Of a DNA stretch of 64,000 bases, positions 12,213-20,563 are shown piece by piece. Below the pieces are notes generated by a model. The model had not been told where the DNA came from and did not search any database. It saw only the letters and a program-made list of their open reading frames with translations. Every line of letters starts with the position of its first letter. Position 1 is the first letter of the stretch. Source of the DNA: a bacterium (lineage in GTDB: Bacteria; Patescibacteriota; Minisyncoccia; Phycocordibacterales; Phycocordibacteraceae); NCBI GenBank assembly GCA_030651285.1, contig JAUSCN010000013.1, forward strand, positions 28,448 through 92,447. Direction: 5' to 3'. The translations under genes were made by a program, and so were the position numbers.

Positions 12213-13169
12213 TTATTTGAGCATCCGTGTAACGAGCGCAATCATCTGCTCTTTCTTCTTTGGGTCGCTCTCGGCGATGAGGAGAGTGAGCGCGGTGAGC
12301 GCTGGCGGATTTATATTGCGACCATTCTTGCTTCGAGCCTTTCGTAGAAACTAAACAAACGAGAATGCTCCCGACCGTTTGTTACCGTCGGTGAAGGGAT
12401 GATTCTTCACCATGAAATACAGAAGGTGGGCAGCCTTCTCTTCAATGGTCTCGTACATAGCTTTCCCGCCAAACGATTGCATGACGTTTCCGACGATGCC
12501 TTCGATACTTCCTACAGCTCTCTCGTGCGCAAAAATCTCCGTCGCTTCGCCTCTTTTGAGAAGCTCGGAACGAAGACTTAGAATCGCTTCCGTCAGTTCC
12601 ACGCCAGTCAACTTGACCGCTTTTTTAGTGGACCCAACCGTTGTTAGAGTCTCTTTATCATACGCGTCAAGCGATATCCAAGTACTCGAGAATTCTTTAA
12701 TCAATTCCAATATCGCTTTTGGATCAAGAAGCACCTGTTCCGGCAAAAGCGACTGAATATCCGAAACGGATTTCATAAACGCATCGTAGTTCTTCGCAAT
12801 CTGCCTGCGATTTACGGTGTAGCCCTTGGTGATGTGCTCGCGCAGCGTCTTGGTCGCCCACTTTCTAAACTCTATGGCAATCTTTGAATTAGTTCGGTAG
12901 CCGATGCTTAAAATAATGTCGAGAGAATAAGCAGCGACCGGTTTGTCAGAATGTGCAATGTGCATTTTTTGCACATTGCTTTTTTCATCAATTTCTCCGT
13001 CTTTCAAGATATTCCTGATGTGTTTGGTTACAACCGACCGCTCCACACCGAACACATCGGCGATTTGCGCCTGTGTCGCCCAAAGCGTCTCGCGCGACAT
13101 ATCGCCACGGAACTCGATTGCGCCGTTCTTTGCCTGATATATGACCATGCCGGTATTCTTTTTTCCCAT
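12213..13169 (-). pseudogene. RhuM-like N-terminal domain fused to a Fic/Doc toxin domain, interrupted by an in-frame TAG at 12351-12353
   Basis: RhuM-type N-terminus (VIYQAKNGAIEFR..LWATQAQIADVFGV..LDIILSIGYRTNSKIAIEFRKWAT). The Fic/Doc motif HPFTDGNKRSGAFSFV is followed by TAG. The same frame then continues for 45 codons (FLRKARSKNGRNINPPALTALTLLIAESDPKKKEQMIALVTRMLK) to TAA at 12213. Confidence 0.75.
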
Positions 13170-13875: not shown

Positions 13876-14077
13876 GGGCACTCCTTTCCGATAAATATGA
13901 ATTTGTACTTATTTTGATTCTGGGTGGAATGTACCACAGATGTTTCTAGTGCAGCAGATTATTATTCTAAAACTTCACGGCTCTGTAGTCATCAAATTCG
14001 ACATCCATAAAGTCTGTCCTCATACCAGAATATCCTTCATTTAGAAAAAATGCTCCCGTTGCGAAGTCTTTAAGCAT

Positions 14078-15106
14078 TTACTCAATCTCTCTTATGCTGA
14101 ACAGTTTATATTCCGCGTCTTTAATCTCATCATTTCTTATAAACACGGAGGTGCCGGGCTCTAAAAGAATTTTATTTGCCGGGTAACCACATATTTTCTG
14201 GACATCTATCCCTGGATTGATCTGTGACCAATCGCCTCTGTCGGTATATTCCGCAACTTTTTCCCAAGCACCACCATTCTTTCCATCTGTTAAATCTCTA
14301 TGGAGCTCCAGCTTTACCGACCCCCCATCTGGGTTAGATTTTACGATAAACTTCACACCAATCCATACATTCGATGGCATGGATGCATCAACAGTATTCC
14401 ATTTCGTTTTGTGAGTCTCGCTCGGTTTATTCCTACTGTATGATCCTTCATGTATCAATTCCTTTTGGAATACGGCGCGCCCATCGTAAAGCAGTCTCCC
14501 GTAATACGTCGCACCGAAACAAGGATTTTCCTCTGTTGCATCCTGATGCTCGCTTCGTGCCCCAATGACAATACCCTGAGAACTTGTCGAGCCGTATTCC
14601 GACACCCGTTTCGCATAAATCGTGACCTCAACATTATTCCATTTTTTGTTTTTAGCAGGATCAAGAACATACATTCTCGGAGCATCGCCCTCTAGTCGAA
14701 CAGTACCGTCACCCTGAATGTACACAGCACCATCGCCACGAGAAACAAATTCACGATCAACAGGGTCACTGTCCCCACTATGCAAGGTCTTAGCTTTTTC
14801 TTTTGCCCATTTTGAGTACCAAACCCGACTATTTTCCTTTGTGGGATATAGCATTGCAATCCCATCGAAAGATAACGCGATCGTTGGTGTGATAACAGGC
14901 TTCGAAGGAAGTTTCTCTGGATCCTCTAACTCACCTGGCTCAATCGATAATACCGGCTCTGGTGCTACATTCTCGGAATTTGTGCCCAGTGACTCAGCTT
15001 TGAGATATAAAGCCCCCCAAACCACTACAATCAGAGCAATACCTACCCTTGCAAGGAATTTAATCCTTGAGCGCCTTAGCTCCCCCGACCTGTGAGGTTC
15101 ATCCAT
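14078..15106 (-). CDS. secreted/anchored beta-jelly-roll-like protein, possible polysaccharide lyase or binding protein
   Basis: N-terminal TM anchor (VGIALIVVVWGALYL). The beta-rich C-terminal part (WNNVEVTIYAKRV, GATYYGRLLYDGRAVFQKELIHEG, WIGVKFIV) looks like a ConA-like/PL fold. This is pattern recognition only. The gene overlaps the upstream gene by 31 nt. Confidence 0.5.
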   Translation of the reverse strand: MDEPHRSGELRRSRIKFLARVGIALIVVVWGALYLKAESLGTNSENVAPEPVLSIEPGELEDPEKLPSKPVITPTIALSFDGIAMLYPTKENSRVWYSKWAKEKAKTLHSGDSDPVDREFVSRGDGAVYIQGDGTVRLEGDAPRMYVLDPAKNKKWNNVEVTIYAKRVSEYGSTSSQGIVIGARSEHQDATEENPCFGATYYGRLLYDGRAVFQKELIHEGSYSRNKPSETHKTKWNTVDASMPSNVWIGVKFIVKSNPDGGSVKLELHRDLTDGKNGGAWEKVAEYTDRGDWSQINPGIDVQKICGYPANKILLEPGTSVFIRNDEIKDAEYKLFSIREIE

Positions 15107-18100
15107 CCGTCCAGTATAGTGGACCAGATTGTTCTTGGGAAACGAGACGACAAAATATCAAGTTTGAATTGAGCGGGAACAGCTTCGTGAAGAACGAATT
15201 CTGTCTGCGGAATGCCATTTCCCCTATCCAGTTCAGAAAGGGTCATAATTCTTATTCCCTGCCGCTTCATATCTTTAATGACAGTCTCGAAATCCCTCAA
15301 TGAAAATTCAGTATGTTGAGATGCTGGTCCCTTTGAAATTTTATGGAACATTAGGAATAGCGTCTGCTTATATTTTATTGCATCGCTAACAGCATTATGA
15401 GCATCTGTTGATTGTGCGGTATTACTGTACATACCAAACGTTCCTACTGCGAGCGAATCAGCAAACGGGAACGCTACAGGCACAGCAATGGTTGCTCGAG
15501 CGTATTTATAGTATTTGCCTATGATGGCTCGCGTAGAATTGTCGATGCTACCATCTGGATATACGTACCAGTTTGGAGCTGAATTGAGATCATTTTTGAT
15601 CAAGTAGTACAGCGCATCCATAACATCATTAGTAAAGCCCTCTATGTTATCTTCATGTACGTATTCAAGAACCGCATTCTTGTGGAGACTCGAGTGACTT
15701 ACCACATTCCACCCATACTCACTCTGGAGGGTTTTTAGATTATCCAATGTTAGATACCTCTTCGTATCAACGCTACCAGTCACCATTGCAACATTGCCTT
15801 TTACTCCGTACTTATTCATGATTTGAGCAGCATCCATCACCGATGCCCATCCATCATCAAAAACAATTACTGCGCGAGCCTCCTTTTGATCAGGAACTAA
15901 TCTAAATTCATGAATATTTACTTTTGCTACCTTACCCTGTTTCGCAGTTGCGACAATTTTAATTCCATCGACCTTAGACCAATCGAATGATGAATCCTTC
16001 TTTGTCCAATTACCCAATTCGACCTTCCTCAAGTCACCCTTAGCCACTCCGAAGTTGATCCACGTATTATTTCGATTGATGTCTTCTTCCGGATCAGGAA
16101 TAATCGACTTTACATTAAACTTGGCATAAGTTGCCCAATTATCATTGGAAAGATACAGATCAACGCCCTGCAGGCTGAAGATCCTATCGACCTTGAATTG
16201 GAAGTAGATGTTGTGATTCGACAAATCTAGATTGACTTTCTTCTCAATACCGAAATGTGAACCATCGGAAGCCGTGGTTATTCCAAGACTGTTTTCCTTC
16301 TGATTAACAGATAAGGATCCTCCAACTACTCCAGAAATGAATTCGCTTACCTCCTCCCATCCTATAGATGTATTTAGAGAATCAATCTGTTGTATTGATG
16401 AGTTACTCTGGTTTGCATCATAATTTTTCTTCACATCGATACTTCTCTCTACGTTCTCAGTTCTGTCTATTTTAACTGTATACTCACCTTTCTTTGTCGT
16501 AACTATTACAAGATTTTTATCCTGTCTGAAGGTTACATTAGCGGCATTTTGACCGATATTAATTGCAGTCACATAAGAAACACTGTTTCCTTTTTTTGCA
16601 TACGAAATCGAATGACATGGAATCGCTACTTTGTATTGAACTGAGCACTGTCCATCAAGTGGTTTCTGTTTATTTATTGCCGTACTCAACTTAAGACCAT
16701 CAGTGGCGAACTGTTTGATAGTTAGGGATTGCTTTGGATCAGAACCTTCCGCCTTGAGAGTTAAGCCGTCAGTGGTTACTCGAGCTCCTGGGAAGAGGTG
16801 GAACATCTGTTCATACGTATGCGGTGCAGAAGACTTGAGATTGTCCAACACAAGTACGGTGGAATCCTCGATTAATACTATTGCCCTCTCGTGAGAGACG
16901 CCATCATAAAGAATGTTTTGGCCAGACTGGTACACATAGCCATCCCCTTCTTCGAAAAATCCAGCGAAGACCTTTTTTGGCTGTGTACTTGATTCGAGAC
17001 CCGCCGACTGATCCTTACCGTCTACAACGACAGTATTGTGAGATCGTGTTCCATGGAAATATGAGCGGTATGACCCCTCTTCATACGTATAAAGACCCGC
17101 GTCCGGCATCAAAGCTATTCCCCCGCCAAAAAGATTGAAGCTGAGTGCGTCGAGATCGCTATGATTGGTTCTGTAATTCCCAACATCAAATATAACCTGT
17201 GTTTGATTTACATACCCATTCTTATTGTTCCAAGCAGACCTCATTATGGTTTGCCCGCCTGAGGGGTATCGAATATTCAGCTTTGCAGGCTTCTCACCCT
17301 CCTCGCCCTGCGTCAATACATACAACAGATCCGGACGTTTCTCTGCAATTTCCTTATAGAGACCAAATAGATTTATCTGCCTCGTAATAGAGGCACCGAC
17401 CGTCGACACCGACAGGTCAGGTTGCAACATATAGACGACGTAAGACACCATTTTATCTAGCTTTTCTTCCGAAAAACCATCTATCGTGAGGTTGTTCTGT
17501 TTTAGATATTTATTGATCTCCAAAAACTTTTCCAAAACATAGAGATGGTAGTACGGCGAATTTTCGACCAACACCCCATCCTCATCAATAATATTTGCCT
17601 GACTCTCAGCAATTCGCTTTGACGCCAATTTGTACCACGAATCTGCCCCCTTCATGTCGGGGAAATTAGCTGCCAAAAGGAAGAGTGCTGCAGCCTGATC
17701 GAGGCCATGGTTATAATCCTTCTCAAAATGAGTAGGGTCCGCCAGGAAGTTTCCATGAACCTTGAGCGACGCCAATATTTTCTTGTCTAACTCGGGTGAC
17801 AATTCATTTTTCTCACGCAACTTCGCCTGCACGCTTATGAGCGTCATGGCCCTAAATGCAACACCATGGTAGTCCCACGAATATTGGCCTTTTTGACCCT
17901 TATCTAGAAAAGACTCGGTGATCTGAATCAGATTATCCTTATACTCTGGCTTGCCAGTCTTCTGCCACGCAAAAAGAAGATTCCGTACAGGCTCTAGATT
18001 GTAATAATTAAAACGCCAATAAATATCAGAAAATGGATCTTCTTTCCAAGTTTGTTTATTTATCACTACGGGCTCGAATCGACTGATTTCGTATCTATTC

Positions 18101-18321
18101 TCGAGAATCCCATCTGCCACTCGAATATCTCCGGTTGCGATATTCGAGTAAATAATTTCCTTCCCATACACGATAGGATAGTCGTGATTCTGAATCATCT
18201 TGAGTATCTTGCTGCCCATCGGATACAGCAAAACAACGACTACCCCTATCAGGGTAACGATAAGTCCCAGATGAGCATGTTTCTTTTTTAGAAGAGCCAT
18301 AAATTTTAGCGTGTCCCCCAC
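15076..18321 (-). CDS. membrane-anchored heparinase II/III-like lyase fused to a CE4 (NodB) polysaccharide deacetylase
   Basis: 1081 aa. Heparinase II/III block NHSDLDALSFNLFGGGIALMPDAGLYTY..GTRSHNTVVVDGKDQ. C-terminal CE4 motifs VIVFDDGW and VSHSSLH. Overlaps the GT2 gene by 16 nt. Confidence 0.8.
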   Translation of the reverse strand: MGDTLKFMALLKKKHAHLGLIVTLIGVVVVLLYPMGSKILKMIQNHDYPIVYGKEIIYSNIATGDIRVADGILENRYEISRFEPVVINKQTWKEDPFSDIYWRFNYYNLEPVRNLLFAWQKTGKPEYKDNLIQITESFLDKGQKGQYSWDYHGVAFRAMTLISVQAKLREKNELSPELDKKILASLKVHGNFLADPTHFEKDYNHGLDQAAALFLLAANFPDMKGADSWYKLASKRIAESQANIIDEDGVLVENSPYYHLYVLEKFLEINKYLKQNNLTIDGFSEEKLDKMVSYVVYMLQPDLSVSTVGASITRQINLFGLYKEIAEKRPDLLYVLTQGEEGEKPAKLNIRYPSGGQTIMRSAWNNKNGYVNQTQVIFDVGNYRTNHSDLDALSFNLFGGGIALMPDAGLYTYEEGSYRSYFHGTRSHNTVVVDGKDQSAGLESSTQPKKVFAGFFEEGDGYVYQSGQNILYDGVSHERAIVLIEDSTVLVLDNLKSSAPHTYEQMFHLFPGARVTTDGLTLKAEGSDPKQSLTIKQFATDGLKLSTAINKQKPLDGQCSVQYKVAIPCHSISYAKKGNSVSYVTAINIGQNAANVTFRQDKNLVIVTTKKGEYTVKIDRTENVERSIDVKKNYDANQSNSSIQQIDSLNTSIGWEEVSEFISGVVGGSLSVNQKENSLGITTASDGSHFGIEKKVNLDLSNHNIYFQFKVDRIFSLQGVDLYLSNDNWATYAKFNVKSIIPDPEEDINRNNTWINFGVAKGDLRKVELGNWTKKDSSFDWSKVDGIKIVATAKQGKVAKVNIHEFRLVPDQKEARAVIVFDDGWASVMDAAQIMNKYGVKGNVAMVTGSVDTKRYLTLDNLKTLQSEYGWNVVSHSSLHKNAVLEYVHEDNIEGFTNDVMDALYYLIKNDLNSAPNWYVYPDGSIDNSTRAIIGKYYKYARATIAVPVAFPFADSLAVGTFGMYSNTAQSTDAHNAVSDAIKYKQTLFLMFHKISKGPASQHTEFSLRDFETVIKDMKRQGIRIMTLSELDRGNGIPQTEFVLHEAVPAQFKLDILSSRFPRTIWSTILDGWMNLTGRGS

Positions 18322-19659
18322 TTCGTATCATTGATACGAATGATGGCATACGGCATCTGCCAAATCATAACGACCGTGTAAAAAACTGAGAACAGAGGCA
18401 TAAGATACCAGTATCTTTCTTTCTGCATCAAAAATAGGTACCCGCCAAATAAAAATCCCATGGTGGTTACCCCAAAGATAAAGGCTATGAAAAAAGTCGG
18501 ATTCATAAGCATAATGCTCTTGAATATGACAAGGCCGACAACAATAGGACCTAAGGTGGGAAGAATAAGATTCGTATAAAATGCGGTGGCCGCCAATGGG
18601 TGCTTTCTCCAAATAAACTTGGCAGCCACAGACCCTTCTCGAATCCACGACTTCTTCCAGCGAAGCTGCTGTTTTAGGAATTTATTGTATTTTTCTGGAA
18701 CGATAGTTACAGCCCTTGCCGCCTGACAATATTCGACATCCCGAGTGCGAAGCACGAAATTTGTCAGACTCCTATCATCGCCAAACGTACTTCGTGTCCC
18801 CATGAACATCTGATTACGCCACTCGGCAATCACTGGCAAAACGGCATCCCTTCTGTACGCAGAAAAACAACCTGGGCAACAGGTCACTACCCCGAAAAAA
18901 CTTTCTGAAACCTTGAAGATATCGTACGATACTGCATATCGTATCGACTGCATTTTTGTCAAAAGATTTACTTGATGATTTGCAACTCCAGTATTTCCCG
19001 ACACAGCTCCGACACGCGGGTTTGCAAAATGGTGCACAAGGTGCCGAAGAGCGTCTCTCTTCAAGAAACTATCAGAATCTACGAAAACGATTATCTCATT
19101 TCTTGCAACAGAAACCCCTTCAGACATCGCTTCCCTTTTCCCTTTATTTACGCCCAGAGTAATCGCCTTAACCAGCTTCTCGCCAAAAAACTCACTCGCA
19201 CGCTGCATCTCAGCATAAGTCTTGTCGGTAGATCCATCATCAACAGCAATGCATTCCATTTCCGCTGGATAATCGGATTTCATGCATGTTTCTATCGTCT
19301 CAAAAATAGACTTCTCTTCATTTTTTCCAGCGATGATGAAGCTTACTTTAGGGTAATTGAAATTCGACAGGACATTTCCTGTATGGATATCCTTATCGTC
19401 ATAGAGAAAAGCGAGAGGGAGTCGCGAGAGTAGAAATACCCCCCCCCAGCAAGCTATAGATGTACCAAAAAATTAGTACCCCATCGCCAGTTTCCGTATT
19501 CAAGTAATATGCAACTTTATACAGAGAAATAAGGGACAGTATCGAAAAGAAAAGAAAGAATGCAGGAACAGATGAAATACCGCCAACAAAGCCGACATTT
19601 TTATCCACCGCAAATGGAGTAATTATGTGAGTAGGTTTATACGATGTATTTTGCTGCAT
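18306..19659 (-). pseudogene. processive GT2 polysaccharide synthase (hyaluronan-synthase/NodC-like), split by a frameshift at a G9 tract; possibly phase-variable rather than dead
   Basis: The N-terminal 86-aa two-TM ORF (19399..19659) stops 17 codons after the tract. The +1 frame is open from just 5' of the tract and reads ..VFLLSRLPLAFLYDDKD..YPKVSFIIAGKNEE..AVDDGSTDKT, then FVDSDS, GDDRSLTN, QQLRWKKSW and C-terminal TM helices. Removing one G gives a single 450-aa ORF. Confidence 0.8.
19439..19447. repeat. C9/G9 homopolymer inside the GT2 synthase gene (frameshift site)
   Basis: Nine consecutive C on the plus strand. On the coding strand the sequence reads ctG GGG GGG GGt. Confidence 0.9.
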
Positions 19660-19674
19660 GAGGGTAAATAAAAA

Positions 19675-19698
19675 GGCATGGAGACGTCTCCATGCCTG
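19675..19698. promoter_or_regulatory. 24-nt perfect palindrome in a divergent promoter region, candidate operator
   Basis: aggcatggagac/gtctccatgcct, between the GT2 gene start (19659, minus) and the xth start (19796, plus). Confidence 0.35.
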
Positions 19699-19795
19699 AC
19701 ATAATATGTATCATACAATCATACATATGTCAACTTTTTCATAAAAAATAGAAAATGCAGTGAAAAATGAGTTTTCTCTCTGATATAGTTCTCAT

Positions 19796-20563
19796 ATGAA
19801 AATCGTCTCCTGGAATGTAAACGGCCTACGCTCGCTCGCAAAGGATGGGTACTGGGAATCTTTTTTGAAAGGTACGAAACCCGACATATTTTGCCTACAA
19901 GAGACCAAAGCGAACCCGGAGCAAGTTTCAGAAGCAATGCTCTCCCCTCTTGGATTCCGATCGTTCTTTTCGTCGTGCCAAGTGAAAAAAGGCTATAGCG
20001 GCGTCGCTATTTACTCAAAAATCGAGCCATTAAAAGTAATTTATGGCATGGGAATAAAGGAGTTTGATCAGGAAGGGCGGCTTGTCGGGGCTGAATATGA
20101 GGACTTCTGGCTCATAAACGCGTACTTCCCTAACGGCGGGCAGGGCCCAGAACGACTCGACTACAAAATGCGTTTTTATGATGCTTTCCTCGCATTTGTA
20201 GAGAAACTGCGTAAGCAGAAACCAGTCATATTCTGTGGCGATGTGAATACCGCTCATGAGGAAATGGACCTCGCACGACCAAAAGAAAACTCAGATAACA
20301 CAGGATTCCTTCCCGAAGAGCGTGCATGGATAGACGAAGTGGTGAATGCTGGATATGTAGACTCCTTCCGCCACTTCTATCCACAAACGAAAGACGCCTA
20401 TACCTATTGGGATATGAAGACTCGTGCGCGCGACCGAAATGTAGGTTGGCGCATTGATTACTTCTTTGTCGCACAAGAATTTTTGAAACAATTAAAGAAG
20501 GCGGAAATTCATCCTGACATCTACGGTTCCGACCACTGCCCTCTTTCAATTACACTCTCTTAA
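19796..20563 (+). CDS. xth: exodeoxyribonuclease III
   Basis: MKIVSWNVNGLRS, LQETK, GDVNTAHEEMDL and SDHCP motifs. Confidence 0.92.
   Translation: MKIVSWNVNGLRSLAKDGYWESFLKGTKPDIFCLQETKANPEQVSEAMLSPLGFRSFFSSCQVKKGYSGVAIYSKIEPLKVIYGMGIKEFDQEGRLVGAEYEDFWLINAYFPNGGQGPERLDYKMRFYDAFLAFVEKLRKQKPVIFCGDVNTAHEEMDLARPKENSDNTGFLPEERAWIDEVVNAGYVDSFRHFYPQTKDAYTYWDMKTRARDRNVGWRIDYFFVAQEFLKQLKKAEIHPDIYGSDHCPLSITLS

Follow-up and report, generated by a model that had tools for sequence, protein, structure and literature searches.

The 64,000-nucleotide stretch analysed here (the window; contig JAUSCN010000013.1 of the patescibacterial assembly GCA_030651285.1) carries three tightly packed genes on the minus strand. 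The middle gene is an uninterrupted open reading frame (ORF) that encodes a protein, P0001, in which a heparinase II/III-like lyase module, a carbohydrate-binding module (CBM)-like domain and a carbohydrate esterase family 4 (CE4) domain are joined (hereafter the fusion). Translation from the GTG at position 18321 gives 1081 amino acids (aa), while an alternative ATG at 18300 gives 1074 aa, the form carried by a database copy of the fusion (P0004). From its domains, its conserved residues and its position beside a hyaluronan synthase (HAS)-like glycosyltransferase gene, the fusion is probably an extracytoplasmic, membrane-anchored bifunctional enzyme that tailors a synthase-dependent surface polysaccharide, both activities being predicted. 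The parts of the fusion are as follows.

15076..18321, minus strand: whole fusion ORF, P0001 (ORF, Pfam and database match)
18214..18273, minus strand: single N-terminal transmembrane anchor, residues 17-36 (hydropathy; helix 2-45 in the AlphaFold2 model)
17302..18147, minus strand: (alpha/alpha) toroid of the heparinase II/III-like module, residues 59-340, holding N204-H205 (17698-17715) and Y258 (17545-17559)
16426..17274, minus strand: antiparallel beta-sandwich of the heparinase II/III-like module, residues 350-632, holding H387 (17149-17169)
15892..16359, minus strand: CBM-like beta jelly roll, residues 655-810, with invariant W772 and W781 (model, matches to CBM11 and to the turret protein of Haloferax tailed virus 1 (HFTV1), Foldseek)
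15202..15879, minus strand: predicted CE4 (NodB-type) deacetylase domain, residues 815-1040 (Pfam, model, conserved motifs)
15847-15864, minus strand: CE4 motif FDDG, with D822 and D823
15682-15696, minus strand: CE4 motif HSSLH, with H876 and H880
15550-15567, minus strand: CE4 motif YVYPDG, with R942 further downstream
15340-15354, minus strand: CE4 motif LMFH, with H993
15079..15201, minus strand: C-terminal tail, residues 1041-1081, two strands and an amphipathic helix, poorly conserved

Three Pfam domains were assigned to the fusion, each above its gathering cut-off: Hepar_II_III_N on residues 59-315 (E 3.6e-17, 63.2 bits, cut-off 22), Hepar_II_III_C on residues 351-534 (E 1.4e-28, 100.5 bits, cut-off 24) and Polysacc_deac_1 on residues 812-935 (E 2.1e-8, 34.6 bits, cut-off 23.1). 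The pairing of a CE4 domain with a heparinase II/III-type module in a single protein, which an earlier sequence-only reading of the window had proposed, is therefore borne out. An AlphaFold2 model was generated from an alignment of 30 relatives (mean predicted local distance difference test score (pLDDT) 87.6, predicted template-modelling score (pTM) 0.72). Parsing this model resolved a lyase fold, a CBM-like jelly roll and a CE4 barrel, in the order N-terminal helix, (alpha/alpha) toroid (about 59-340), beta-sandwich (about 350-632), jelly roll (about 655-810), (beta/alpha) barrel (about 815-1040) and short tail. For the first two domains the top Foldseek matches were the polysaccharide lyase family 12 (PL12) heparinase III structures 4MMI, 4MMH, 5JMD and 4FNV, with E values of 2e-30 to 4e-26 and target-normalised template-modelling (TM) scores of 0.63-0.71, followed by lyases of families PL39, PL15, PL17, PL35, PL33 and PL21. 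Strands and helices alternate across residues 816-1034, as in a CE4-type (beta/alpha) barrel.

The earlier reading had also placed a beta-rich region of about 250 aa between the two catalytic domains. Such a stretch exists, but it is not one unit: it is made up of the remainder of the lyase beta-sandwich, which runs to about residue 632, and an independent jelly roll that spans some 155 aa (655-810). When folded alone, this jelly roll had a pLDDT of 90 and matched CBM11 with a Z score of 13.5 and a root-mean-square deviation of 2.8 Å over 142 residues; further CBMs matched it with Z scores of 9-12. The CE4 motifs VFDDGW (residues 820-825) and HSSLH (876-880) are present, as described. Residues 17-36 are the sole candidate membrane span (Kyte-Doolittle 2.4) and are immediately preceded by KKKH. 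No second anchor was found in the C-terminus, where hydropathy nowhere exceeds 0.5 and the helix is amphipathic. From this arrangement an N-in/C-out topology is predicted, which would place the ectodomain on the outer side of the membrane.

Conservation of the putative catalytic residues was examined in 30 relatives with 31-79% identity to the fusion. In a phmmer alignment with Pedobacter heparinase III (4MMH), N204, Y258 and H387 of the fusion correspond to Asn240, Tyr294 and His424 (chain numbering +24), the residues that serve heparinase III as neutraliser and general base/acid (PMC12088678). N204 is kept in 29 of the 30 relatives, Y258 likewise in 29 and H387 in all 30, and R157, R236 and R361 of the lyase module are invariant. 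Both Pfam domains, the fold and the Asn/Tyr/His set thus place the fusion in the heparinase II/III-like (PL12-like) lyase family, with beta-elimination as its putative chemistry.

Lyases and C5-epimerases share the abstraction of the C5 proton beside a neutralised carboxylate, and the two chemistries are inseparable by sequence alone. The heparinase-like domain might accordingly be read as a uronate C5-epimerase that converts glucuronic acid (GlcA) to iduronic acid (IdoA) while N-acetylglucosamine (GlcNAc) is N-deacetylated on the same nascent chain, yielding a heparan- or dermatan-like polymer. We consider this improbable. The model does match human dermatan sulfate epimerase 1 (6HZN, Foldseek E 3.3e-15), and N-deacetylation combined with a C5-acting domain would recall heparan sulfate modification in animals; however, every closer sequence or structure match is to a lyase (PL12, PL39, PL15, PL17, PL35, PL21 or PL33), the Asn/Tyr/His set is a lyase catalytic set, and no sulfotransferase or other glycosaminoglycan-maturation gene occurs among the recurrent neighbours described below.

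In CE4 enzymes, motif 1 supplies the catalytic base Asp and a metal-binding Asp, motif 2, H(S/T)xxH, supplies two metal-binding His residues, and motif 5, LxH, supplies the catalytic acid His. Motifs 1, 2 and 5 of the fusion (MT1, MT2 and MT5) align with those of the CE4 structures 8QPG and 7AX7, and D822, D823, H876, H880, R942 and H993 are invariant in all 30 relatives. The Polysacc_deac_1 match, the barrel fold and these motifs identify the domain as CE4/NodB-type, with a predicted deacetylase activity. As the alignments place catalytic residues in both domains, the absence of which would have spoken against a bifunctional enzyme, both halves of the fusion look catalytically competent.

The genes on either side of the fusion, also on the minus strand, are the following.

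18306..19659, minus strand: upstream processive glycosyltransferase of family 2 (GT2), HAS/NodC/chitin-synthase-like, split into ORFs 19399..19659 and 18306..19472
14078..15106, minus strand: downstream gene for P0003, a membrane-anchored, beta-rich protein of 342 aa, kept at the same position in the related loci L008 and L010

The GT2 stop codon lies 5 nt ahead of the ATG of the fusion, and the GT2 gene overlaps the fusion if the GTG start is used; P0003 overlaps the end of the fusion gene by 31 nt. A consensus scan for terminator-like sites gave no excess over shuffled sequence (6 found, 5.2 expected), which supports an operon. The best solved-structure matches of the GT2 are hyaluronan synthases (8SMM, E 1.6e-29; 7SP6 and 8SNC, about 1e-24). 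It also matches NodC with 158 bits and Chitin_synth_2 with 79 bits, and given the NodC score a chitin-like backbone is an equally possible product.

Locus context in related genomes was obtained from GTDB genome contigs by tblastn and ORF clustering. Besides the window locus, nine related loci have a HAS-like GT2 gene directly upstream of the lyase gene. Four are labelled as candidate phyla radiation (CPR) bacteria (L008, L009, L010 and L025), and the others as Dehalococcoidia (L011), Gammaproteobacteria (L012, 28.7% GC), Chloroflexia (L020), Streptosporangiaceae (L021, 66.7% GC) and the DPANN archaeon Iainarchaeum (L030). In L017 and L019 a GT2 gene lies within 5 kb of the lyase gene. Among 62 loci with distant heparinase-like genes (22-29% identity), by contrast, only one had a GT2 match. 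A gene of the UDP-glucose/GDP-mannose dehydrogenase family directly precedes the GT2 gene in L010, L019, L021, L025 and L030, and a sugar nucleotidyltransferase gene lies downstream in L010.

The catalytic domains themselves are also found in other arrangements among the relatives. The lyase and CE4 are encoded by separate adjacent genes, in that order, in L030 and in the reverse order in L017, and in L020 the lyase gene is followed by a Big_7-CE4 gene. Two metagenome proteins of about 1530 aa (P0042 and P0052) carry an extra N-terminal CE4, giving the order CE4-lyase-CBM-CE4. In P0096 and L012 the same lyase subfamily (44-46% identity) has another type of CE4 as its partner, one that hardly aligns with the CE4 of the fusion (E 0.06 and 2e-5, respectively). 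That the same partners have been fused, split and exchanged repeatedly beside the same synthase argues strongly, on comparative grounds, for a single substrate shared by the three activities. The sequence-only reading had compared the fusion with PgaB- and PelA-type processing enzymes. The fusion likewise sits in a synthase operon next to a GT2 gene, and the nine loci with GT2 upstream, the five with a dehydrogenase gene before GT2 and the split lyase and CE4 neighbours all support a role of that type. Two further variants of the family were noted. P0135 has an added C-terminal LamG domain. In a Solirubrobacterales metagenome-assembled genome (L019:2047-9836) the gene order is a fused UDP-sugar dehydrogenase (Ugd), the GT2, two glycoside hydrolase family 18 (GH18) chitinase-like genes and lastly a LamG + Big_7 + heparinase-like protein devoid of CE4, so that the GH18 genes separate the GT2 from the lyase gene; the GH18 genes hint at a polymer with beta-1,4-GlcNAc linkages.

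A word-indexed search of 90%-identity clusters returned 149 proteins that match the fusion at E <= 0.001, and most of the 120 relatives listed out of these 149 have the same three Pfam domains. Their source names include Paceibacteria, Magasanikbacteria, Falkowbacteria and other Patescibacteria, and the proteins themselves bear only generic names ('hypothetical', 'heparinase II/III family' or 'polysaccharide deacetylase'). An exhaustive search of 50%-identity representatives yielded 490 proteins at E <= 1e-30. Several dozen of these span residues of about 50-1056, and many others correspond to the lyase only or to CBM-CE4 only. The architecture thus recurs in metagenomes but appears uncharacterised. 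When the whole protein was used as a query against 400 other sampled genomes of the phylum, no full-length fusion was found and all matches were to the CE4 region, indicating that the fusion is a sparse accessory trait among the genomes searched and not a phylum marker. As a full-length fusion is present in the actinobacterial contig L021 (66.7% GC), the family is not confined to CPR bacteria.

Full-text literature searches turned up no paper describing a heparinase II/III-CE4 fusion, nor one dealing with HAS-like synthases from CPR bacteria. A study of heparosan N-deacetylases (PMC13353177) and a Nealsonbacteria preprint mention CE4 enzymes but not the lyase-CE4 architecture. These results agree with the earlier view that replacement of the hydrolase by a lyase in this architecture may be undescribed.

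Several known systems share features with the fusion. PgaB of the poly-N-acetylglucosamine (PNAG) systems of E. coli and Bordetella and PelA of the Pseudomonas Pel system also combine, in one extracytoplasmic polypeptide, a metal-dependent CE4-type deacetylase and a domain for cleavage of the polymer being deacetylated, and are encoded in an operon with a synthase that is a processive glycosyltransferase (PMC5933820, PMC9384988). In the fusion, however, the putative cleaving domain is a PL12-like toroid plus beta-sandwich rather than a glycoside hydrolase of family GH153 (PgaB) or GH166 (PelA), the order is cleaving domain-CBM-CE4, a transmembrane helix serves as the anchor, and in place of PNAG or Pel the polymer is probably an acidic one. 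Since neither Pfam nor NCBIfam detected GH153 or GH166 homology, the fusion would function like PgaB and PelA without being a member of either family. AlgL of the Pseudomonas alginate operon is likewise a beta-eliminating lyase encoded with the machinery for the uronic-acid polymer that it cuts, and it acts in polymer homeostasis rather than catabolism (PMC8829089). Unlike the fusion, AlgL is a soluble periplasmic, single-domain PL5 enzyme with no deacetylase fused to it. Alginate_lyase (PL5) was not among the Pfam matches of the fusion at E <= 0.01, and the beta-sandwich of the fusion is foreign to PL5. By functional analogy, the fusion would unite an AlgL-like role, that of a lyase in a biosynthetic operon, with a PgaB/PelA-like role, that of a deacetylase coupled to a cleaving domain.

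Heparinase III (HepC) of PL12, represented by the structures from Pedobacter heparinus (4MMH) and Bacteroides thetaiotaomicron (5JMD, 4FNV), shares the two-domain fold and the Asn/Tyr/His residues with the fusion and is its best PDB sequence match (E 7.7e-19, identity 18-19%). In contrast to the fusion, HepC is a secreted catabolic enzyme that lacks a CBM-CE4 extension and a synthase neighbour. The other half of the fusion, comprising the CBM-like and CE4 domains (residues 655-1040, 15202-16359), matches the HFTV1 turret protein (413 aa; 8QPG, 'prokaryotic polysaccharide deacetylase') as a single unit, with a Foldseek TM score of 0.71 over 412 columns, a phmmer E value of 6e-4 and a jelly-roll Z score of 13.2. 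The two proteins have the motifs FDD/IDD, HxxxH, YVYP(D/S)G and FH in common. 8QPG differs in being a virion decoration protein with neither a lyase module nor a membrane anchor. This half also matches free-standing proteins of about 400 aa (P0172, P0236, P0242 and P0250). By homology, then, the fusion is a distant PL12-like putative lyase joined to a predicted CE4 enzyme of the 8QPG-like subtype. As for the synthase, the GT2 best matches class I HAS, and relatives carry ugd before GT2, much as the streptococcal has operon combines hasA (synthase), hasB (UDP-glucose dehydrogenase) and hasC (pyrophosphorylase). The has operon differs in containing no lyase or deacetylase gene, and the source genome has no hasB or hasC equivalent.

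We propose the following order of events for the tailoring of a surface polysaccharide by the fusion. The HAS/NodC-like GT2 would polymerise and translocate a GlcNAc-containing, probably acidic chain; in the relatives with a UDP-sugar dehydrogenase gene in the operon, this chain is most likely an acidic polymer of GlcNAc and uronic acid. The single N-terminal helix would hold the fusion at the membrane, where the CBM-like module may bind the emerging chain and the CE4 domain may strip part of its N-acetyl groups. The PL12-like domain would then cut at uronic acid residues by beta-elimination, serving length control, release or clearance. In favour of such a role, the source genome encodes a second, canonical CE4 that could serve any peptidoglycan deacetylation.

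Several observations weigh against this proposal. The canonical CE4 motif 3, RxPY, contains an Arg that positions the catalytic Asp, but the corresponding segment of the fusion reads YVYPDG and has no Arg. The same variant is present in 8QPG, and the invariant R942, 20 residues downstream of YVYPDG, might substitute for the motif 3 Arg. At the other end of the protein, the scores against the NCBIfam HepC equivalogs are far below their cut-offs (NF045573, 91.1 bits against 700; NF045572, 68.2 against 600), so the fusion is not a heparinase III orthologue. The remaining two points concern the supply of sugars and the state of the synthase gene.

The source assembly (855 kb, 96.7% complete) was searched for a UDP-sugar dehydrogenase with the family model, a relative's protein, local tblastn and a hidden Markov model, and none was found. 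The genome of L008, the closest relative with available DNA, also lacks one. As a consequence, the uronic acid substrate of the lyase is not accounted for in this clade. GlmS, GlmU and any PF00483 NTP_transferase were likewise not found in the source assembly, although MurA and a GT2 synthase that uses UDP-sugars are present. We therefore rejected the absence of Ugd as a decisive test for uronic acid in the polymer: with GlmS, GlmU and PF00483 also missing, the lack of Ugd decides nothing on this question, and the counter-evidence is weakened. The source organism appears unable to make any nucleotide sugar by known routes, so all of its UDP-sugars would have to come from elsewhere.

A genome of 855 kb without Ugd, GlmS, GlmU or a sugar nucleotidyltransferase fits a dependent lifestyle, and the lyase residues are retained in a clade unable to make UDP-uronic acids. 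As characterised members of the lyase fold are catabolic, the fusion could be a degradative or attack enzyme whose targets are foreign glycans (the capsule or wall of a host cell, for instance, or polyuronates from the environment) rather than the cell's own polymer, with its adjacency to the synthase being incidental. We regard this explanation as unlikely. The GT2 gene lies directly upstream across distant lineages, with the genes overlapping or nearly abutting, and ugd joins it in five loci, whereas the distant and presumably catabolic heparinase-like genes are without a GT2 neighbour. Moreover, a membrane anchor, as opposed to secretion, would retain the enzyme at the producing cell.

The synthase gene of the window is frameshifted at a run of nine G residues (G9; 19439-19447, minus strand), which puts the membrane N-terminal part out of frame with the catalytic part. 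The pathway is therefore probably off in the sequenced population. Removal of one G from the run gives a frame that reads LLGGVFLLSRLP, matching LLGGLFLISRLP of the intact L008 orthologue. The frameshift could be taken to mean that the cassette in this genome is a decaying remnant of horizontal acquisition in which the fusion ORF is intact but functionless, a view in keeping with the lower GC content of the locus (42-43% at 14001-20000, compared with about 50% in the flanks), the lack of a detectable Ugd and the absence of the fusion from the 400 other genomes of the phylum. Several features make such decay improbable: the fusion runs for 1081 codons without a stop and keeps all of its catalytic residues, P0003 is intact as well, and restoration of the L008-like frame by loss of a single G is what one would expect of a reversible homopolymer slip.

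A more far-reaching version of the tailoring scheme, for which we see only a slim chance, is that the product of the cassette (HAS-like GT2 and the lyase/epimerase-like plus N-deacetylase enzyme, with or without Ugd) is a glycosaminoglycan-like polymer of prokaryotes. Its N-deacetylation, and perhaps C5-epimerisation, would take place outside the cell, in a microbial parallel to the opening steps of heparan sulfate maturation. In the source genome, nucleotide sugars would be supplied by a host, and the poly-G run would act as an on/off switch in the synthase.

To our knowledge, in the synthase-dependent exopolysaccharide systems that have been studied, the synthase is accompanied either by a combined hydrolase and deacetylase, as with PgaB and PelA, or by a lyase that stands alone, as with AlgL. 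The family of the fusion instead brings a lyase-type module and a predicted deacetylase together in a single anchored polypeptide, with the lyase in the place of the hydrolase. The linkage to HAS-like synthases in CPR bacteria, DPANN archaea, Actinomycetota, Chloroflexota and others points to an undescribed surface polymer that is probably acidic and partly de-N-acetylated, and its carriers belong to groups with very poorly characterised cell surfaces and contacts with hosts. A further use of the enzymes could be as tools to tailor glycosaminoglycan-like polymers.

The downstream protein P0003 is translationally coupled to the fusion. It had no family match in Pfam or NCBIfam, and its nearest Atlas clusters are unnamed jelly-roll proteins, mostly from Nitrososphaerota. 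A polysaccharide-lyase lead (PF14099; score 0.90, 14% of members) was rejected because it is not strong enough for a functional assignment. The low-GC locus lies next to toxin-antitoxin genes and a truncated RhuM-Fic/Doc gene (12351-13169). Together with the shift in GC content, these neighbours would fit acquisition of the three genes by horizontal transfer.

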